The position numbers and the translations under genes were made by a program. Positions 340 to 44,987 of a stretch of DNA of 64,000 bases are shown one piece after another (the stretch's first letter is position 1; each line of letters starts with the position of its first letter). The notes below the pieces were generated by a model. It had not been told where the DNA came from, did no database searches, and was given only the letters and a program-made list of their open reading frames with translations. Source of the DNA: Escherichia phage vB_Ec-G1; sequence record PQ433349.1. One strand, given 5' to 3'.

Positions 340-368
340 GAAAAGCCCCCTGAAACAGGAGGCTTTGT
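340..368 (-). terminator. rho-independent terminator (minus strand)
   Basis: On minus strand AGCCTCCTG-ttt-CAGGGGGCT hairpin followed by TTTTCTTTTAT. Confidence 0.6.
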
Positions 369-381
369 TCAGATGTTGGCA

Positions 382-1035
382 CTATACCAGACTTTGTAGG
401 TATTTGTCAAGGGCTTCTTGATCACCTTGGCAAACATAGCAACGGAAGTCTTGAGCCGAAGGTTGTTTATTTTCATCCCAATCCCAATAAACGTTACCTT
501 TATAACGTGAACCAGGGAACTCAAAAGAGGCTGTATGTGTAATGTACCCTGGGCCACCAGTGAAATCACAGAATGAAAATTGAGGGTATGCCGCCTTTAC
601 TGCCTCAATAAACCAAGCTTTACGATCTAAGGCTTCATTGATGCTATATGCATGTCTCTCCATTTCTTCCCAAGTTTTCCAGACACTTCTCTCATCAGGG
701 GAAAAGACAAGCCATTCTGGAAGGTAGAGAGTGTCATAGTAATCATCATATTCGATCTCGGAGGCGCACGAAGCTGACTCTTCCAGTTTTGAGTAATCAA
801 AAGCAGAATATACCCACCAACCATCTTCCAGTAAAGCTTTGATAGGGACGAAGCCTTTATCAGCATATTGATCGAATTGTTTGACACGGTGGCTTGTGCA
901 GTCTTCAAACTCACATTCTAAACGATATGCACCTTTTCGACGAGCCTCAAGACCGTGTGTACTGAAAATAACAACACTTCCTTCACCATCATTACGATCT
1001 ACTTGATAAGCAACTACTGGTTTTGAATTTGACAT
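382..1035 (-). CDS. hypothetical protein (217 aa)
   Basis: Long minus ORF in operon context; no recognisable motifs. Confidence 0.55.
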   Translation of the reverse strand: MSNSKPVVAYQVDRNDGEGSVVIFSTHGLEARRKGAYRLECEFEDCTSHRVKQFDQYADKGFVPIKALLEDGWWVYSAFDYSKLEESASCASEIEYDDYYDTLYLPEWLVFSPDERSVWKTWEEMERHAYSINEALDRKAWFIEAVKAAYPQFSFCDFTGGPGYITHTASFEFPGSRYKGNVYWDWDENKQPSAQDFRCYVCQGDQEALDKYLQSLV

Positions 1036-1718
1036 TATTTCTCCTTATCTAGAAGATTGTTAGACAAAAACACTGCACGAGCAAAACCGCGTGCGGTTAG
1101 TGATCTAAGTTGTTTTGTTTTTGCACTAGCTCCGCCTAAGCTTTTCCAACCCCAGAAGCAGCCTATATGATCTACTGGTTTCTTCACTGGTTGAACAAAG
1201 CCATTCCCGTGCCAAATACAAGTTTTCTTTGTATACCCATCACGGGTAGGCATTTTAGGATGAAAGCTTCCTTCCTCTTCAAACAAATACCCACCATACT
1301 CATAAGGATCAAAGTAAAAATCGGGTTTACGCCATAAGGTTGAAAGTTTACCTACTGGGTTCTCAATCATCCAAGGAACATTGTATTTGTTACCCAAAGC
1401 TTCCACTACACGAATATTAGCTAAAGCTTCATCTAATTCCTCTGTGCTGCGTTCGTGTTTGCTACCACTACCTGCTAACATAGTGCAAGGTGGAAATCCA
1501 AAAATAATATCGGGTTTAGGTATTCCATGATCTTCAGGGTTGAATGTAGAATCTATCCAAGCATTCACATAGGTTATGTTTGGGTGCTCCATCCTAACCT
1601 CGTATTTACCGTGGTCCCCTTCATCAGCGTTTACACAAAAACACTTGTGACCTGCTTCGGCATAACGTAACACCATGATCCCAGATCCGTCAAACATAGA
1701 CAAAACTGTTTTACTCAT
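1035..1718 (-). CDS. C5-cytosine methyltransferase-like SAM-dependent enzyme (short, no obvious target-recognition domain)
   Basis: Motif I-like FDGSGI, motif IV-like GFPPCT (PCQ-like), motif VI-like ENPV; start refined to ATG 1718 with GGAGGGG SD. Confidence 0.5.
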   Translation of the reverse strand: MSKTVLSMFDGSGIMVLRYAEAGHKCFCVNADEGDHGKYEVRMEHPNITYVNAWIDSTFNPEDHGIPKPDIIFGFPPCTMLAGSGSKHERSTEELDEALANIRVVEALGNKYNVPWMIENPVGKLSTLWRKPDFYFDPYEYGGYLFEEEGSFHPKMPTRDGYTKKTCIWHGNGFVQPVKKPVDHIGCFWGWKSLGGASAKTKQLRSLTARGFARAVFLSNNLLDKEK

Positions 1719-2106
1719 TACCCCTCCATTCAAGACAAGCCATAACTTTACGCCAATCACTTTCTGTAAGAAAAATCTCGTTTGCTTTCTTCCACAAATC
1801 TAGATCGTGAAGGGTTGGAATACGATATGTTAGTTCACAGAATCTATGTTCTTCTTCTGTAATATAACCAAAATGCAGAGCCACATCGTGAAACCAACAC
1901 CAACCATGCATCTCTCGAACAACATGGTCATGTTGAGACATTATTTTATGCCGTAAACCTAACCAACAAGGAACAGATACTTCAGTAGTCTTTAATCTGT
2001 GATCAACAGTATTAGAGTATTCAATAATAGCTGTCAGTTTCAATCGTGCTTTTTCTAAATCCTCATGCGTCACTTTGAAATAACTTTCTGAAAGATATCC
2101 ACACAT
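1711..2106 (-). CDS. hypothetical protein, His-rich (possible HD-like)
   Basis: ORF with AGGAGG SD before ATG 2106; H/D-rich segment QHDHVV..HGWCWFHD. Confidence 0.45.
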   Translation of the reverse strand: MCGYLSESYFKVTHEDLEKARLKLTAIIEYSNTVDHRLKTTEVSVPCWLGLRHKIMSQHDHVVREMHGWCWFHDVALHFGYITEEEHRFCELTYRIPTLHDLDLWKKANEIFLTESDWRKVMACLEWRGNE

Positions 2107-2107
2107 A

Positions 2108-3049
2108 TTAATAACCTCCTTCAAAAGGCTTTACTACATGTTGATTAGCTTTAAAACGTTCAACATAGTCGTTTTCGCCCATGTTTTCATATAGCTTAAT
2201 AACAACATAAAAGTTTTCCCAAGCATATTCCCTAAACCAACCACTAGTGATGGATGTGCAGACTTTAGATAAAGCCATTATAAAACTTTGCTTAGGGGTT
2301 GGACCTCCGATCTCTCCACCGAAAGGAATTTGTGAACGTTCCAAAGCCAAAACACACGCTTCTTCATAAACACCTAACAGGCGCACATGTTTTGGTTGAG
2401 CAAAAAACTTTTCTTTGCTGGTCATAACTTCACTTCCATCTTTCATATAAGATTTATATGCCGGAGCATCCATTACCGCGATTGCTTCATGGATAGAATC
2501 ATGATCATAAACATACGGAACCTCATCACCTTTAAAAAAGTCTTTACTTTTTACGTTTAAGTTCGGATGAGAGTAAGTGTATGTTTCTTTCTCACGCAAC
2601 TCATAAATACTCTTAAGATTTTCTGGGATCTTTGCGCCCAGTGACCGCATGAAATGAATATCTTTCATAGTTTTAAAGAAGTGAGGACTATCCTTTTTAA
2701 AACGATGACTCATTTTAAGAAGGTAGAGCACATCTAAAGGAGCAACAACATGTCCAGCGTAAGTTCGACGAACATCATCAGAATCTTCACAATAACTAAT
2801 CAAAGCTTCTGTGCTATCTCCTTGAGAAGCAATATCGTATTCCAAATGTGCACCAGCTATCATTTTGACATGGCCTTTGTTTCCTTTACGTTCTACAAGT
2901 TCAACAAACTCCTCTTGAGAGAACATTTTTGATAATTCTTCCCACTCTTGTTCTGTACACAGGTAATCTAAATCTACACAAGGGCGATACAAGTCTTTTC
3001 CCATGTCCATAGCATGAATTTGCAATGCACGGCTACCAATTAACACCAT
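2108..3049 (-). CDS. hypothetical protein; possible Pol-beta-superfamily nucleotidyltransferase
   Basis: 313-aa ORF, GAGGAG SD; N-terminal GS...DLD pattern weakly resembling nucleotidyltransferase signature. Confidence 0.5.
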   Translation of the reverse strand: MVLIGSRALQIHAMDMGKDLYRPCVDLDYLCTEQEWEELSKMFSQEEFVELVERKGNKGHVKMIAGAHLEYDIASQGDSTEALISYCEDSDDVRRTYAGHVVAPLDVLYLLKMSHRFKKDSPHFFKTMKDIHFMRSLGAKIPENLKSIYELREKETYTYSHPNLNVKSKDFFKGDEVPYVYDHDSIHEAIAVMDAPAYKSYMKDGSEVMTSKEKFFAQPKHVRLLGVYEEACVLALERSQIPFGGEIGGPTPKQSFIMALSKVCTSITSGWFREYAWENFYVVIKLYENMGENDYVERFKANQHVVKPFEGGY

Positions 3050-3107
3050 AATATTTCTCCTCTATTGGTTGATAGGTTAAGTTTATCAAGCTTCCAGATT
3101 TCTGTCA

Positions 3108-3131
3108 ATAAAAAACCCGCCGAAGCGGGTT
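3108..3131 (-). terminator. rho-independent terminator (minus strand, UUCG tetraloop)
   Basis: On minus strand CCCGC-ttcg-GCGGG followed by TTTTTT; -35 TTGACA of next promoter directly after. Confidence 0.7.
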
Positions 3132-4398: not shown

Positions 4399-4889
4399 AA
4401 AACCTCCTCAATCTTGTAGTTTGACTCCATCTCCAACACATTTCCACGAACGTCTCTCCGAAGAAAGGCATAAGCTTTATTAGGTATTGTAGACTCATAT
4501 TTAACCATATCTGGCACAGCAAAAGATACTACTACTCCTGCTGGGCTTCTGTCAAGAGCCTTATTAATATTTCTAAGGATATCGTTAGCCAAGATTTCTG
4601 CCAATTCTCCAAGAACGGTTTCGGTTATATCTTTATATCCCATTAAGTATTTGTTGATATCTTTCATCTCTGTATTGTTCAGAGTATAATCCAAAGGATA
4701 GAAATTCAAAGCGGAGTCACTTTTATGTGTCCACATGAAATGCACCCGATCCGAGCAGAATCGTAACCCTCTTTGAAGAATATCTTCTACAACAGGCAGA
4801 ATTTCTTTTGTCACATCATTAACCATGTTGTAATCTAAGATTTCTGCCAAGTTTGTTCTTTGTTCACCACGTTTACGTTTAGGAATCAC
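4377..4889 (-). CDS. hypothetical protein (170 aa)
   Basis: Minus ORF, operon context. Confidence 0.5.
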   Translation of the reverse strand: MIPKRKRGEQRTNLAEILDYNMVNDVTKEILPVVEDILQRGLRFCSDRVHFMWTHKSDSALNFYPLDYTLNNTEMKDINKYLMGYKDITETVLGELAEILANDILRNINKALDRSPAGVVVSFAVPDMVKYESTIPNKAYAFLRRDVRGNVLEMESNYKIEEVLWQSSDQ

Positions 4890-5460
4890 TTGTTATTGCC
4901 CTCATTACCAAAGGTCGTAGAAAATCGTAAATCTCTTGTTTTGTTTTCCCACGAATGTTTAAACAAGGAACATTATTGGCTTTAGCTATCTTCCAAGCCG
5001 TAGCTGTTCCACCTTTTGCATCTCCATGTTTATCAGTATTAGCACAAGCCAACAAGAAACATGATGGAGCAGGATTCTCCAAATCTCTACCTAACACTTG
5101 ATGCACATTACGTTGGTGCAATTTTCTAGCACCCTGCTTAAGCTTTTCATAGGCTGGGTGAACATCTTTGATCCATTGCACAGAGATAGCATAGTTCATT
5201 GTATCTGGTTTTGCAAGAACAATAACATCCCCTGGAATCTGATTACCTTTGAAATTTTCCCAAGGAACATAAATCTCCTTGTTAGTAGGATTTTCAGACT
5301 CTTGGACACCTGTTTCAAAAGCAGAATCACTACCCTCTGCCTTCCCAGACCTTAATTTAAACCCAAGGTTTGAAAGCCATTTCCCTATGCCTACCATCAA
5401 AGCCCACTCTTCTTCGGATATGTCTCTACTTCCAACTCCCGTATAGAACAGTTCTACCAT
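4879..5460 (-). CDS. DprA/Smf-like (SLOG) Rossmann-fold nucleotide-binding protein
   Basis: YTGVGSRDI...SGKAEGSDSAFE pattern typical of DprA/LOG-like Rossmann domain; start refined to ATG 5460 (GAGGTGA SD). Confidence 0.5.
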   Translation of the reverse strand: MVELFYTGVGSRDISEEEWALMVGIGKWLSNLGFKLRSGKAEGSDSAFETGVQESENPTNKEIYVPWENFKGNQIPGDVIVLAKPDTMNYAISVQWIKDVHPAYEKLKQGARKLHQRNVHQVLGRDLENPAPSCFLLACANTDKHGDAKGGTATAWKIAKANNVPCLNIRGKTKQEIYDFLRPLVMRAITSDS

Positions 5461-5467
5461 AATCACC

Positions 5468-5776
5468 TCAACAAGTAATTTCAAAAGGTGTATACGGTTC
5501 CGTATTTCTCATGATCCAAGGACTGCTAGGATTGCTCGGATCATAAGGACCAAAAGGTTTTATGGTCGGTTGTGTTTCTTTCTTCTGAATCTCTTCAAAA
5601 ATACGACGAAGTTCAGAATATTCTTGATCCACCATAAGATTCGGTGCATCTGATTCTACAGCTTGCAGGTTATCTTCCTTAAGAACAATCTCACGAACAA
5701 GATTAACATCTTCTGTTTCTAAGATAACTTCTTTACGGATATTACCTACACTTTGAATAATTGTAATCTTATACAT
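5468..5776 (-). CDS. hypothetical protein (102 aa)
   Basis: Minus ORF. Confidence 0.45.
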   Translation of the reverse strand: MYKITIIQSVGNIRKEVILETEDVNLVREIVLKEDNLQAVESDAPNLMVDQEYSELRRIFEEIQKKETQPTIKPFGPYDPSNPSSPWIMRNTEPYTPFEITC

Positions 5777-8135: not shown

Positions 8136-8645
8136 TTAAACAAAATAAAATGGTTGAGAGAGGCCCAAACGATTTTTTGGGTCGTATACATACCAAGCGT
8201 ATGCTGTCTTATCTGTTCCACCTGCAACAAACGAAGGCCGTTCTGAAAGGACTATAAGGTTTGTTGGTGGATTCTTTTGATGGAACTCTCGTCGTTTCTT
8301 TGACTCCAAGAAGCCCAACCGAAGAAGATAAATACAAACATCCGCCTCTTTTAAGCTCTTTTCCAAGAACTCCATTGCTAACTTGAATGGAGGATTTGTG
8401 ATTATAATGTCGGGACGATTTTCCCATTCATGACTAAAATAATCTTTACCTTCTTCAAGTTCACAATATTCTGAACCTTCAGGAAAATGGCGATAAATCG
8501 CTTCAGCTTCACCTCTACAAGGTTCTGCAAAAATCCAACCTTCTTCCTTTAGATTTTTGAAATCTATAACACTAAACAAACTGTTGATTGCTTTTTGCGG
8601 TGTCGGATAATAATCGCTCGTTGGGCGATCATAATCTAATGCCAT
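8136..8645 (-). CDS. small DNA N6-adenine (or N4-cytosine) methyltransferase-like protein
   Basis: IITNPPF catalytic motif (NPPF/DPPY class) and upstream DYYPTP. Confidence 0.55.
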   Translation of the reverse strand: MALDYDRPTSDYYPTPQKAINSLFSVIDFKNLKEEGWIFAEPCRGEAEAIYRHFPEGSEYCELEEGKDYFSHEWENRPDIIITNPPFKLAMEFLEKSLKEADVCIYLLRLGFLESKKRREFHQKNPPTNLIVLSERPSFVAGGTDKTAYAWYVYDPKNRLGLSQPFYFV

Positions 8646-9108: not shown

Positions 9109-9801
9109 TTAAATAGCGGTTCCTTCGAAATCCGCCACATTTACGAGATTAATATTTTCAGATTTAGAAGTCAAGTTGTTTTCTGCAACAGATTTTTCTT
9201 CAGTATCCGCCTCGTTACCTGCCACGTTACGAGGTTCTTCTTCACCGTAGGGATTACCGAATTTCAAAAGATTGATCAATTCTTCTTTGGAGAAGTTTTC
9301 TAAATCATCGTCTGTTAATTCAATAATCTCATCTTGTTCTTCAACAAATGTTTCACCACCAGAAAAAGCATCTCGCTTTTTAGCTACTTCCATAGCCTGT
9401 TCTGGTGTTGCCCCTGCATCAAGAGCAGCTAAAGCAAAGTCTGACCCGCTTCCTACCGCATAATATTCTTCATCAATCGGATATGCACGTGTTGGGTTGT
9501 TACCTTCGTGCAGGAAAATACGTCCGTCAGGATGAACAACAAGTGCAATAAACTCTTCATCTTCTTTATCTGGATCAGAGTGAATCATCAAACCAGGGAC
9601 AGCATCACGTGCTGCTTCGCACTGTAGATTTTGTTCAAACCATTGAAAGAAAGAAAGCACGGAGGTCAGACGACCAGCACCACCTACAAGGTAATCTCCA
9701 ATTTTTCGGACCTTTTTGAAATTAATAGAATCTACACGTCCACCAAAAGTTACCTTACCGTCACTCAAAATCTTATTTTTGGTTGCAATAATTGTCGTCA
9801 C
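9109..9801 (-). CDS. HslV-like Ntn-hydrolase peptidase with acidic C-terminal extension
   Basis: N-terminus MTTIIA...DG...VTFGG, KKVRK...GGAG and AVGSGSDFALAA align with HslV core; no HslU-like ATPase adjacent. Confidence 0.8.
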   Translation of the reverse strand: MTTIIATKNKILSDGKVTFGGRVDSINFKKVRKIGDYLVGGAGRLTSVLSFFQWFEQNLQCEAARDAVPGLMIHSDPDKEDEEFIALVVHPDGRIFLHEGNNPTRAYPIDEEYYAVGSGSDFALAALDAGATPEQAMEVAKKRDAFSGGETFVEEQDEIIELTDDDLENFSKEELINLLKFGNPYGEEEPRNVAGNEADTEEKSVAENNLTSKSENINLVNVADFEGTAI

Positions 9802-11795: not shown

Positions 11796-12056
11796 TTACT
11801 CCGCAATTTGAGCCATGAGATCACGCAGTTCGGTAAAACCGCCTACGTATGTTACCTCCCCGTTCACTTCAGACAGAATTTGTGGAAATGTGCGTGGAGG
11901 AACTCCGGTAAGATCAACAACTGTTTTAGTCATTGATTCTAAATCATAGTCTTGGTCAAGACTTAAATATTCAAACTGTTTATTGCGCATAGTCAATAGT
12001 TGTTTTGACATTTCACAAAATTGACAGTTAGGTTTACCAAAAATTACAAATTCCAT
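11796..12056 (-). CDS. glutaredoxin/NrdC-like redoxin
   Basis: CQFC active-site CxxC near N-terminus, GGF near C-terminus; adjacent to RNR genes. Confidence 0.75.
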   Translation of the reverse strand: MEFVIFGKPNCQFCEMSKQLLTMRNKQFEYLSLDQDYDLESMTKTVVDLTGVPPRTFPQILSEVNGEVTYVGGFTELRDLMAQIAE

Positions 12057-12898
12057 TACCTCTCCTTATTAAGTAATACTGCTAAAGACTGTTCAATACC
12101 TTTATTTAAATCTGATTTTGTAAGATAGTGACTGGTTACTAGTTGTGACTTCACCGGACGTGCTGCTGGAGCATTATAGGTTGAAGCTGATACCGCCGAT
12201 ATCTTAACAGGTTCTGGCATCTGTGTCAAGATCTTTTCCGCAAACTCCGCCCAAGAAATAAGATGGCTTCCTGCAAAATGGTAAGTCTTAACAGACCTTG
12301 ACCAACCTGTTTTTAATACTTCAAAAATAGCTTCTGCTAAATCTGGAGCATATGTTGGACAAGAGAACTGATCAGCAACAATAATAAAATCACGTTGTCC
12401 ATCATTATAGCGAGACAACATGGTTTTTAGAAAGTTATTTCCAAATTCGCTATATACCGAGGCTGTTCGAATAATATATGCATTTGGGTTAACTCCTCGC
12501 ACCATTTTTTCACCAAGTTCTTTCGTATACCCATAATTGTTTATTGGGTTAGGTGTAGTATCTTCAAAAATAGGATGAGAATAATTAAAAATATAGTCTG
12601 TGGAAATATGCACAAAATCAATTTTAAGTTTGCTGCACAGTGCCGCAATATTTGCAGGGCCATAAGCATTAACAGCCAAAGCAGTAGCAAAATCTTGTTC
12701 GGCTTTATCTACAGCCGTATAAGCGGCGCAATTAATAACACCATCTACATAATCTTCAATAATAGCGTTTCGCACAGCTTCAAAATTTGTAATATCTACA
12801 CGTTCTTTAGGATAAATTAAAGATACATTTGCAGGGGCAACTTTACGTAAAGCTTGTCCCAGTTGTCCATTACCACCCAATACCAAATATGTTAGCAT
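12056..12898 (-). CDS. rmlD: dTDP-4-dehydrorhamnose reductase
   Basis: STDYIF, YGYTKELGEK, RTASVYS, NF..TML, DQFSCPT motifs matching RfbD/RmlD. Confidence 0.85.
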   Translation of the reverse strand: MLTYLVLGGNGQLGQALRKVAPANVSLIYPKERVDITNFEAVRNAIIEDYVDGVINCAAYTAVDKAEQDFATALAVNAYGPANIAALCSKLKIDFVHISTDYIFNYSHPIFEDTTPNPINNYGYTKELGEKMVRGVNPNAYIIRTASVYSEFGNNFLKTMLSRYNDGQRDFIIVADQFSCPTYAPDLAEAIFEVLKTGWSRSVKTYHFAGSHLISWAEFAEKILTQMPEPVKISAVSASTYNAPAARPVKSQLVTSHYLTKSDLNKGIEQSLAVLLNKER

Positions 12899-13458
12899 AC
12901 ACCCTCGCTACGTAGCTGTTGAAAAGACTTAGCCATTGCATCTTTTGTTGATAAGATAGGTTTAAAATCTTCGTCAAAAATCATATCGAAGCCCCAATCA
13001 ATCCCTATATCAGGATCATCCCAACGTAAACTTTGTTCGCTGGAAGGGTCGTATGGAGTTGTGCATTTGTATTCGAAGATAGCATCCATACTCAACACTA
13101 TAAAACCATGTGCCAAACCAGGTGGAAGCCAGAACTGTGTATGGTGTCGTGCACGAAGAACAACACCGTCCCAAGCACCGTAAGTAGGACTATCTTTACG
13201 TAGGTCTACAGCGAAATCCAATACTTCCCCACTTACACAACGAACAAGCTTACCTTGCGGATTATTTGTTTGAAAGTGCATTCCTCGCAAAACACCGAAG
13301 TTTGATTTAGACATGTTATCTTGAACGAAAGTTTGTCTACCAATGATATCTTCGTATTTTTGTTCATTATATGTTTCTAAAAAGAAACCACGATCATCTT
13401 TATAAACGTCTGGTTTGATAATTACCGCACCTTCAATTTTTGTTTTTTCTACTTTCAT
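12892..13458 (-). CDS. rmlC: dTDP-4-dehydrorhamnose 3,5-epimerase
   Basis: [44 protein letters not shown] motifs; ATGA overlap with rmlA stop. Confidence 0.85.
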
Positions 13459-14333
13459 TTTCTCTCCGCTAATTTGAGCAGGTATTGCCCGTACTCTGTT
13501 TTCTTCAGTGAGTTTCCATGATAGACCAAAGTCTCTAAAGAAATCCACCCTTTTTTGAAAGCAATTTCTTCCAGGCACGCAATCTTCAATCCTTGACAGT
13601 TCTCAATAGTCTGCACGAATTGACCAGCTTCCATCAGACTGGCGTGTGTTCCTGTGTCAAGCCAAGTAAATCCTCGTCCGAGAACTTCTACTTGTAACTT
13701 CCTGTCTTCGAGGTAGCTGCGATTGATATCGGTGATCTCCAGTTCTCCACGCGCGGAAGGGGTTACTTCTAATGCACGTTGAATAACAGAGTTATCATAG
13801 AAATACAAACCTGTGACAGCATAATCTGATTTAGGATTTTCAGGTTTCTCTTCAATAGAAATAGCTTGATGATTACTCCCAAATTCAACCACACCGAATC
13901 GTTCAGGATCTTTCACCAAATACCCGAAGATACAAGCTCCGCCACAAACATCTACCATCTCACTGGCGTTAATCAGTAGTTTACCAAAGCTTTGTCCGAA
14001 GAATAGGTTGTCACCTAAAATAAGAGCAACAGAGTCTTCTCCGATAAAATCTTTACCGATGATGAAAGCGTCCGCAAGACCTCGTGGCTCGGATTGGATT
14101 GCATAAGTGAGTTTTATCCCAAACATAGACCCATCTCCGAGAAGATACTCAAAGTCTTCCTGATCGCCTGGTGTGGTGATGATTAAGATATCCTTAATGT
14201 CAGCCAACATCAATACCGATAAAGGGTAGTAGATCATGGGTTTGTCATACACAGGGAGCAATTGCTTGCTCACACTGCGTGTTACCGGATGAAGGCGGGT
14301 TCCACTTCCTCCCGCCAAAATAATACCTTTCAT
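13455..14333 (-). CDS. rmlA: glucose-1-phosphate thymidylyltransferase
   Basis: [40 protein letters not shown] pattern; start at ATG 14333 with AAGGAGG SD. Confidence 0.9.
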
Positions 14334-14341
14334 AGCCCTCC

Positions 14342-15334
14342 TTAAATCTTCCCACTCCACCATTGAGGGTTGTTTAAGTACCATTCAATCGTTGAGTAGA
14401 GATCTTGTTCAAATGTAGAGTTTGCACTCCAACCCAGTTCAGACTCTATCTTAGAAGGATTGATTTCATAACGCAAGTCATGTCCTTTACGATCTTCAAC
14501 AAAAGTTATCAAGTTGGAAGAAGGGTAGGTTCCTGCTTCTGGATGTACAGCATCCATGTAGTCACAAACCATATAGATGATCTCCATATTGGTTTTGGGA
14601 TTACGTGTTCCCACATTATACGTTTGACCTGGTTCTCCACCTGTTGCCACTTGAAGAATAGCTCGCGCATGATCCTCAACAAAAAGCCAGTCTCGCACCT
14701 GATCGCCTTTACCATACACCGGAATCTCTTTATTCGTCAAGATACTTGTGATGATTTTTGGGATCAGCTTTTCTGGATGTTGATAAGGTCCAAAGTTATT
14801 GGAGCAGTTGGTTATCACAACAGGTAAACCGTAGGTACGGTACCAAGCTTTCACAAGATGGTCAGATGCTGCCTTAGACGCACTGTACGGGCTTGAAGGG
14901 GCATAAGCTGTCTCTTCGGTAAAGGGAACGCCAGAGTCTGCCATATCGCCGTACACTTCGTCTGTGGAGACGTGTACGAACATCTTCAGTTTATTTTTTG
15001 GGAGGAGCCTTGCAGCTTCCAATAAATTGTATGTGCCAATAATATTGGAGTCGATGAAAACTCGTGGATTCTTGATAGAATTATCCACATGACTCTCTGC
15101 CGCTAAGTGAATGATGAAATCGGGATTGCACTCTACTACTAAACTTTTGACCTGGGTTTCGTTTGCCAAATCTGTTATGCTTAGTTTAACGTGAGTGATA
15201 TCGCCTACATTCTCAATATCTGCTGCATAGCCCATCTTATCAACGACAAAAACTTCGTTATTGGGATCTTGACAAAGAGAGCGCACCACGGCACTCCCAA
15301 TAAAACCAAGACCACCTGTTACCAGATAGCGCAT
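14342..15334 (-). CDS. rmlB: dTDP-glucose 4,6-dehydratase
   Basis: [10 protein letters not shown] Rossmann motif, YSASKAASD catalytic Yxxx[18 protein letters not shown]. Confidence 0.9.
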
Positions 15335-44507: not shown

Positions 44508-44987
44508 ATGGAACTCAATAAAGATACACTGTGGGAACTCTTCAAAACCTTCGCTGGTTTTAAAGAGAATTCTGAATCCCAACAAGATTCTATACCATCT
44601 CAAAAACCTGAAACTCTAGTCAAACAAAATAAATTTGATGAAGAAAAGATGCAGGTTATTGAGGTCTTGTATTGTCCACCTGAAGAAGACGATCTCCACG
44701 GAGAGCGCATGTCTGATTTGGAAATCAGGAAGATGGTTGACAACTTCAATGAGAATATTACCAATATTAGTGGTAATCTTGGTCACATGAAGAACACCGA
44801 TAAGTTTTCTCCAATTAAAGCTTGGGTAAATGAAGTCGATTGTTACATTGGTGACGAACTCGTTGTGGAAGGAACTCCCCTCGTTAAAATCCAATTCAAC
44901 GACCCTGAATTATATCAAGCTCGTAAAGACGGCGTTCTTAAAGGTTTGAGTATAGGCGCAATGGGCGTTAAAGTCAAGAAGGACTAA
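44508..44987 (+). CDS. hypothetical head morphogenesis protein (159 aa)
   Basis: Position between portal and scaffold-like gene. Confidence 0.5.
   Translation: MELNKDTLWELFKTFAGFKENSESQQDSIPSQKPETLVKQNKFDEEKMQVIEVLYCPPEEDDLHGERMSDLEIRKMVDNFNENITNISGNLGHMKNTDKFSPIKAWVNEVDCYIGDELVVEGTPLVKIQFNDPELYQARKDGVLKGLSIGAMGVKVKKD

Follow-up and report, generated by a model that had tools for sequence, protein, structure and literature searches.

Two small genes for probable orphan DNA methyltransferases in a phAPEC8-like Escherichia coli phage

Results and Discussion

Two methyltransferase genes in a Phapecoctavirus genome

Two small genes of Escherichia phage vB_Ec-G1 (PQ433349.1), a phAPEC8-like phage, are here called gene A and gene B. 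They are genuine orphan DNA methyltransferase genes, but unremarkable ones. Both lie on the minus strand of the 64,000-nucleotide stretch of DNA that was analyzed (the window), at the positions where the preliminary description had put them. Their products are probably AdoMet-dependent enzymes acting on DNA, gene A as a member of a small phage Dcm family that would produce 5-methylcytosine (5mC), and gene B as a gamma-class core that would produce m6A. The first 10 kb of the window share 99% identity with the genomes of many E. coli myoviruses of the genus Phapecoctavirus (phAPEC8-like, Stephanstirmvirinae), and public records of this genus already label the two genes “Dcm,” “DNA methyltransferase,” or “putative DNA methyltransferase”; the copy of gene A in phage tuntematon, which is 100% identical, is annotated “Dcm.” Thus, both genes are already known from public annotation, and the gene A family has already been characterized experimentally (see below).

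Gene A contains the catalytic motifs of C5-cytosine methyltransferases

The features of gene A are as follows:

1035..1718, minus strand: gene A, predicted small phage Dcm-type C5-cytosine DNA methyltransferase, 227 aa, starting MSKTV
1680..1694, minus strand: motif I, FDGSG, AdoMet binding, aa 9–13; invariant in 30 homologs; F9 aligns with F18 of M.HhaI
1482..1496, minus strand: motif IV, FPPCT, with the predicted catalytic Cys78, aa 75–79; C78 invariant in 52 diverse members, aligned with Cys81 of M.HhaI and equivalent to C82 of K42-type Dcm
1350..1364, minus strand: motif VI, ENPVG, with Glu119, aa 119–123; E119 invariant, aligned with E119-N120 of M.HhaI and equivalent to E128 of K42-type Dcm
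1221..1235, minus strand: motif VIII-like YTKKT, with K164 and K165; Y162, K164, and T166 conserved; aligns with YFKKT of K42-type Dcm
1107..1220, minus strand: putative 38-residue substitute for the target-recognition domain (TRD; CIWHGNGF...FWGWKSLGG...TKQL); strongly conserved in close homologs, unlike the K42-type sequence
1083..1106, minus strand: motif IX-like RSLTARGF; R205, S206, G211, and F212 conserved; non-significant local alignment to M.HhaI R272-KLHPRE

A longer, GTG-started version of the reading frame extends to 1760; the homologs begin at the ATG, which is preceded by GGAGG. It had been noticed that the segments FDGSG, PPCT, and ENPV resemble motifs I, IV, and VI of C5-cytosine methyltransferases, and this resemblance was borne out. 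In an alignment of 30 homologs (A1), F9, D10, G11, S12, G13, F75, P76, C78, T79, E119, N120, and P121 were all invariant. Because this invariance, and that of the gene B motifs in 33 homologs (see below), spans so many sequences, the motifs are not chance matches. When a profile of 52 diverse family members (A3) was compared by hhalign with a profile of canonical C5 methyltransferases, the probability was 90% (E 1.4e-6), and F9, C78, and E119-N120 were paired with F18, Cys81, and E119-N120 of M.HhaI, that is, with motifs I, IV, and VI. The canonical profile was built from phage C5 methyltransferases found by tblastn, with M.HhaI (identical to PDB 10mh) as the numbered reference; a homolog search with M.HhaI as the query was too narrow for a profile, returning only isoschizomers of at least 71% identity.

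Outside these motifs, gene A differs from M.HhaI and other canonical type II C5 methyltransferases (PF00145). Where the latter have PCQ, QxRxR, and the GN of motif X, gene A has PCT, YTKKT (with lysine for arginine), and no recognizable motif X. The threonine in place of the glutamine of PCQ, also pointed out in the preliminary description, is invariant in A1 and present in at least 90% of A3, and motif II of gene A carries an asparagine where an acidic residue is usual. The observation that the protein is too short for a normal TRD likewise holds, since only 43 residues separate the start of YTKKT from that of RSLTARGF, compared with 111 between the corresponding points of M.HhaI. No QxGN motif X could be recognized because the chain stops 15 residues past RSLTARGF. 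Conserved arginines are found in and near the motif IX-like segment (R205, R210, and R214 in A1). When the C-terminal halves of the gene A family and of the canonical enzymes were compared by hhalign, in local and in global mode, the result was not significant; the alignment of RSLTARGF with RKLHPRE of M.HhaI had E 0.1.

How well profile searches recognize the family depends on the library. The check proposed earlier, an HMM search against methyltransferase families, succeeded with PHROGs, in which gene A matched phrog_757 (E 1.8e-84, aa 1–225) and gene B matched phrog_799 (E 4e-59), and failed with the other libraries: the Pfam DNA_methylase model (PF00145) scored gene A at 11.6 bits, below its 22-bit cut-off, EcoRI_methylase scored gene B at 14.7 bits, below its cut-off of 26.4 bits, and NCBIfam returned no match for either protein. 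Even among 52 members of the gene A family, the best Pfam result was a single member at E 0.0067. HMMER searches of the PDB sequences returned nothing with A1 and only matches over motifs I to IV, at E ∼0.04, with A3; HMMER can therefore not bridge the distance between this family and the canonical enzymes. The AF2 model of gene A (pLDDT 87.5, pTM 0.87) has the fold of a C5 methyltransferase catalytic domain. Taken together, the alignments and the model strongly support the reading that gene A encodes a protein of the C5-cytosine methyltransferase family. That family is large, comprising 870 clusters at 90% identity (210–267 aa among the 120 clusters listed) and 1,866 clusters at 50% identity, nearly all of 200–260 aa, and it is present in 1,487 phage records.

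Gene A resembles the Dcm that triggers retron Ec86

The experimental anchor for gene A is the Dcm of phage K42, a KarlJaspers-like Hanrivervirus. Mutants of this phage that escape retron Ec86 all disrupt a 711-bp dcm gene (bioRxiv 10.1101/2023.08.16.553469; the published version is Wang et al, Cell Rep 2024, as cited in PMC12916289). According to the preprint, the AlphaFold model of K42 Dcm superposes on DNMT3A, residues C82, E128, K175, and K176 were assigned catalytic or substrate-binding functions, and expression of the protein increased 5mC on msDNA, as determined by LC-MS, while a quadruple mutant, in which these residues were altered together, was without effect. In addition, mutation of CCTGG in the msDNA abolished Ec86 defense, and a Dcm of this type was encoded by 34 of 35 Ec86-sensitive phages (bioRxiv 10.1101/2023.08.16.553469).

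For sequence comparison, K42 Dcm was represented by egaa_9 from egaa, a phage of the same genus (Hanrivervirus), which is likewise encoded by 711 bp, consists of 236 aa, and has exactly C82, E128, K175, and K176. An alignment of egaa_9 with gene A covers the full length in 231 columns and shows 50.6% identity (E 1.5e-72). C78, E119, and K164/K165 of gene A correspond to C82, E128, and K175/K176, respectively; the homolog from Warwickvirus KMB46 shows the same correspondence. Both proteins have ∼230 aa and share FDGSG, FPPCT, ENPVG, Y-x-KKT, and RSLTPRGFARAVF, and the K42-type protein also resembles gene A in the threonine after the cysteine, the asparagine in motif II, and the short C-terminus. 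Because the K42-type enzyme has both, the replacement of glutamine by threonine and the tiny TRD are normal for an active family; as signs that gene A is unusual, these features, which had drawn attention initially, lose their weight, being family-wide. Judged from the residue correspondence with this experimentally characterized relative, gene A can be given the name of a Dcm-type C5-cytosine DNA methyltransferase. The name does not extend to the target sequence. Between motifs VIII and IX, the 38-residue segment of gene A reads HIGCFWGWKSLGG, and its K42-type counterpart reads DKDNPGWAKTGG. Because this TRD-like segment differs, the target sequence may differ as well, and CCWGG specificity is not transferable to gene A; for K42 Dcm itself, that specificity was deduced by mutating the msDNA and not from a methylome (bioRxiv 10.1101/2023.08.16.553469). 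The phages differ as well, the K42-type enzyme being encoded by a 51-kb siphovirus and gene A by a 150-kb myovirus.

The same comparison bears on the notion that both proteins are relics of methyltransferases, have lost catalysis, and now function in DNA binding or as decoys. Sub-threshold Pfam scores, the lack of a recognizable motif X, and the asparagine in motif II of gene A are what one would expect of such relics. However, the catalytic and cofactor-binding motifs are all invariant across hundreds of clusters, and the active K42-type enzyme shares the architecture, the motif II asparagine, and the threonine after the cysteine. This notion is therefore given hardly any credence.

Proposed mechanism of gene A

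Judging from motifs, modeled fold, and K42-type correspondence, we infer the following activity for the gene A protein. Cys78 of motif IV would attack C6 of a flipped-out cytosine, Glu119 of motif VI would protonate N3, and the methyl group of AdoMet would be transferred to C5, giving 5-methylcytosine. The 38-residue segment, together with K164 and K165, would replace the large TRD, much as in DNMT3A/B. The parallel to the latter is one of architecture: identity between gene A and the catalytic domains of DNMT3A and DNMT3B is only 16–17%, and gene A is 60 residues shorter. Moreover, DNMT3 enzymes (∼285 aa) have kept motifs IX and X and act on CpG as a DNMT3L-assisted oligomer, whereas gene A is without a recognizable motif X.

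A chemically different reaction, transfer of a carboxymethyl group from carboxy-SAM to give 5-carboxymethylcytosine, is catalyzed by CmoX-like enzymes, and gene A might conceivably do the same with a cofactor supplied by the host CmoA. The diagnostic features of CmoX (PDB 8YF3) are an SPPC motif, an arginine (Arg350 of CmoX) at the position of Asn304 in HhaI, and neighboring genes for CmoA and CmoY (PMC12783734). Gene A, in contrast, has FPPC, with F75 being invariant, and whereas CmoX is adjoined by CmoA and/or the AMP-forming ligase CmoY, neither gene accompanies gene A. CmoA and CmoY-type ligases were absent beside family members in three unrelated genomic contexts and from the annotation of 46 kb of the phage. 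Furthermore, when the homologous K42 Dcm was produced in E. coli, a CmoA-positive host, LC-MS showed 5mC. Carboxymethyl transfer by gene A is thus very improbable.

The genomic contexts examined offer no conserved partner genes

Gene A is predicted to be part of a four-gene transcription unit:

342..3131, minus strand: predicted four-gene transcription unit containing gene A; overlapping start and stop codons; based on consensus scans only, with Pfam and PHROG assignments
3131-3114 and 3108-3080, minus strand: 5′ end of the unit, with a terminator-like hairpin and a promoter-like site, respectively (consensus scans)
3049-2108 (DUF7275/7277), 2124-1711, gene A, and 1035-382, minus strand: the reading frames of the unit, in order
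366-342, minus strand: 3′ end of the unit, a terminator-like hairpin (consensus scans)

The neighbors of gene A in the window were assigned to DUF7275/7277, phrog_16551, and phrog_8514 (Pfam and PHROG). None of them was found beside family members in the three unrelated genomic contexts. For gene B, too, no conserved partner or specificity gene was present in the unrelated genomes examined, the neighbors differing each time. The idea that one of the two genes works with a conserved specificity partner was rejected, as every unrelated context has different neighbors.

That gene A has no conserved partner speaks against a pathway of several enzymes or one at the nucleotide level; the latter, which had been considered in the preliminary description, is not supported here. 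In such a pathway, one or both proteins would act on free nucleotides or in hypermodification of DNA, for example together with dTDP-rhamnose genes. The window indeed encodes a complete RmlABCD pathway (12056-15334), Olsen et al raised the speculation that hydroxymethylated bases are rhamnosylated, and both gene A and gene B lack a TRD. However, members of both families are encoded by hundreds of small siphoviruses and prophages, where the neighbors are unrelated and sugar genes are absent, and neither a TET protein nor a hydroxymethylase nor a glycosyltransferase was found as a partner; no CmoA, TET, or ligase gene was seen in the neighborhood. In addition, the K42 homolog of gene A acts on DNA, and the high restriction sensitivity of related phages (see below) argues against a bulky modification. 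A role of the two proteins in nucleotide-level modification or hypermodification is therefore most improbable.

Gene B is a probable gamma-class catalytic core without a TRD

The features of gene B are as follows:

8136..8645, minus strand: gene B, predicted minimal gamma-class N6-adenine methyltransferase core without TRD, 169 aa
8598..8609, minus strand: motif X, YPTP, aa 13–16; T15 invariant, Y13 and P16 at least 90% conserved
8511..8525, minus strand: motif I, EPCRG, aa 41–45; E41, P42, and C43 invariant, G45 at least 90% conserved
8385..8405, minus strand: motif IV, IITNPPF, predicted catalytic, aa 81–87; I81, T83, N84, P85, and P86 invariant; site of the sub-threshold Pfam EcoRI_methylase match

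The length of the protein and its IITNPPF motif had been described correctly. Across 33 homologs, T15, E41, P42, C43, N84, P85, and P86 were invariant. The motifs YPTP, EPCRG, E62...D68-Y69, and NPPF follow one another in the order X, I, II/III, and IV, and because of this order gene B conforms to the gamma-class amino-methyltransferase pattern; RPSF is also conserved. Some relatives carry a cysteine-rich, zinc-ribbon-like insertion after RPCF. The AF2 model (pLDDT 89.4) has the fold of gamma-class N6-adenine methyltransferases. The family comprises 247 clusters at 90% identity, mostly of 165–200 aa, and occurs in 543 phage records. Thus, the claim that both proteins are methyltransferase-like, made from the letters of the sequence, stood up to the PHROG matches, the folds, and, for gene A, the identity to the K42-type enzyme.

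From NPPF to the C-terminus, only 82 residues remain, and there is no TRD. This sets gene B apart from gamma-class N6-adenine DNA methyltransferases such as M.TaqI, MmeI, M.BseCI, CamA, and type I HsdM, which have 380–750 aa or more and a TRD or specificity subunit; gene B consists of 169 aa, comprises the catalytic domain only, and has no conserved partner gene. By way of its NPPF catalytic loop, it would generate m6A in DNA.

Alternatively, the protein might be an N6-adenine methyltransferase acting on rRNA or tRNA of the host or the phage, in the manner of the small METTL5 and PH1948. In fold and small size, gene B is indeed similar to these rRNA m6A methyltransferases, but identity is 15–19%, and motif I is different. 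METTL5 also requires TRMT112 (according to the title of the PDB entry); such a partner is not evident beside gene B, whose context is phage DNA metabolism. A DNA substrate is favored because of four kinds of evidence: weak Pfam matches in the family, every one of them to a family of DNA adenine methyltransferases (EcoRI_methylase in 11 of 33 members, Eco57I and Dam in one each); a relative whose gene is clustered with those for Dam and a D12-class DNA methyltransferase; the location of family genes in replication modules; and the structural neighbors of gene B in BFVD, most of which are named DNA N6-adenine methyltransferases. As far as sequence and model comparisons go, DNA is more likely the substrate than RNA, and the reading of gene B as a DNA methyltransferase is moderately supported; action on RNA is unlikely. 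A literature search on the gene B family found no experimental work.

A role in protection from restriction would have to be narrow

We infer that the two methyltransferases would modify phage DNA as it replicates and, as a side effect, also DNA of the host and retron msDNA. Most likely, such marks would protect the phage against particular restriction systems, so that the anti-restriction role proposed for both genes is plausible. It is weakened, however, by data on relatives. In the BASEL collection, Vequintavirinae and their relatives were “exceptionally susceptible” to the six restriction-modification systems of the panel, EcoKI, EcoCFT_I, EcoRI, EcoRV, EcoP1_I, and EcoCFT_II, which include type I and type III systems besides EcoRI and EcoRV. 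Homologs of both genes are present in one such phage, Bas53 JohannBauhin (47.5% and 47.6% identity), and phi92 contains a homolog of gene B (85.8% identity). Because their host is restriction-free, the BASEL stocks should carry any phage-encoded marks. The susceptibility of homolog carriers thus means that any protection would be narrow and that the relatives of gene B are probably not non-specific adenine methylases. This argues for narrow protection by analogy, the panel consisting of relatives and not including phAPEC8-like phages themselves. Site counts in the window are uninformative as to the role: neither CCWGG (73 sites against 65 ± 8) nor GATC (279 against 217 ± 13) is avoided. A literature search for methylome data on Vequintavirinae or Stephanstirmvirinae found none.

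Enzymes without a TRD may also have been retained for something other than general anti-restriction. Gene B could act on RNA or on short or structure-defined DNA, and gene A could derive its specificity from a new 38-residue element or from dimerization, both being kept for countering a specific defense or for marking DNA for replication or packaging; this combination strikes us as quite doubtful.

Whatever the benefit, Dcm-type methylation would come at a cost, as methylated msDNA activates retron Ec86/Eco1 (bioRxiv 10.1101/2023.08.16.553469), so that a gene A product modifying msDNA in this manner could trigger the retron.

Significance

Each of the two proteins appears to be cut down to little more than a catalytic Rossmann-type domain, and with lengths of 227 aa, where a 38-residue segment stands in for the TRD, and 169 aa, where nothing does, their families would be among the smallest known DNA methyltransferase architectures. 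They could thus serve as models or tools for minimal base-flipping enzymes. Current concepts are left unchanged by these genes. The main value of the analysis is for annotation, in that gene A can be named although Pfam and NCBIfam miss its family. The remaining interest lies in how such minimal enzymes recognize their targets, in the substrate of gene B, and in the retention of the genes in restriction-sensitive relatives. For phAPEC8-like phages used in therapy or biocontrol, the presence of gene A predicts possible detection by retron Ec86/Eco1 and possible restriction by type IV systems that depend on 5mC.

Probable mis-annotation of an ORF as a third methyltransferase gene

Directly after the portal gene lies an ORF annotated as "DNA methyltransferase" in RefSeq NC_052654 (gp072):

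44508-44987, plus strand: ORF of 159 aa

In Pfam, this ORF matched Peptidase_S78_2 (XkdF-type phage serine protease) above the threshold (E = 1.4e-11). Judged from the sequence, its label is probably a propagated mis-annotation, so that the window would contain two methyltransferase genes rather than three.

Sequence features of the two methyltransferases

Gene A encodes the small Dcm-type C5-cytosine DNA methyltransferase. The residue of motif II normally contacts the ribose of AdoMet. In gene A (aa 30; nt 1629-1631) it is Asn, as it is in the close relatives and in the K42 type (the 5mC-forming Dcm of phage K42 and its like), whereas at least 90% of the broader gene A family carry Asp (alignments of gene A homologs, A1, and of diverse family members, A3). 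Replacement of Asp by Asn is a subfamily-specific change.

In the alignment of homologs of gene B, the predicted minimal N6-adenine methyltransferase (A2), a subset (for example, P0158, P0171, P0188, P0204, P0235, and P0240) contains an insertion of ∼30 residues with four cysteines (C..C...C..C) directly following the RPCF motif, and one member of this subset matched a Pfam zinc-ribbon model. This insertion, which is absent from the gene B protein of the window, could be an added DNA-recognition element.

A gene B homolog with 85.8% protein identity is present in one 146-kb record titled "Campylobacter phage". This is one example of the near-identical copies of genes typical of E. coli phages (phi92-like, rV5-like, and Drexlerviridae) that occur in dozens of such records (MG065689, MG065680, MG065658, and others), for which Campylobacter jejuni is given as the host; these records may be mislabelled or derive from contaminating coliphages.

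Genomic context and sequence composition

Two further genes are located between and beside gene A and gene B:

4879-5484, minus strand: "DprA-like" protein (phrog_768, E = 3e-62; Pfam match below threshold)
9109-9801, minus strand: HslV/proteasome-like peptidase (PF00227, E = 1.1e-5; phrog_1040)

Across the whole window, GATC is commoner than expected (279 sites versus 217 ± 13 in 100 dinucleotide-preserving shuffles, none of which reached 279), and the count of CCWGG is at expectation. The sign of the GC skew flips at ∼36 kb, the point at which transcription moves from the minus strand to the plus strand; shortly beyond this switch, the RefSeq relative has ten clustered tRNA genes (L002 5758-7770).

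A complete dTDP-L-rhamnose pathway (12056-15334, minus strand) is surrounded by genes of nucleotide metabolism:

12056-12898, minus strand: RmlD
12892-13578, minus strand: RmlC
13455-14384, minus strand: RmlA-type nucleotidyltransferase
14342-15334, minus strand: RmlB-type dehydratase

Candidate targets of the rhamnose are DNA, the virion, and a host glycan. According to the BASEL survey, relatives of the phage stay sensitive to restriction; rhamnosylation of the DNA has been a speculation by Olsen et al.
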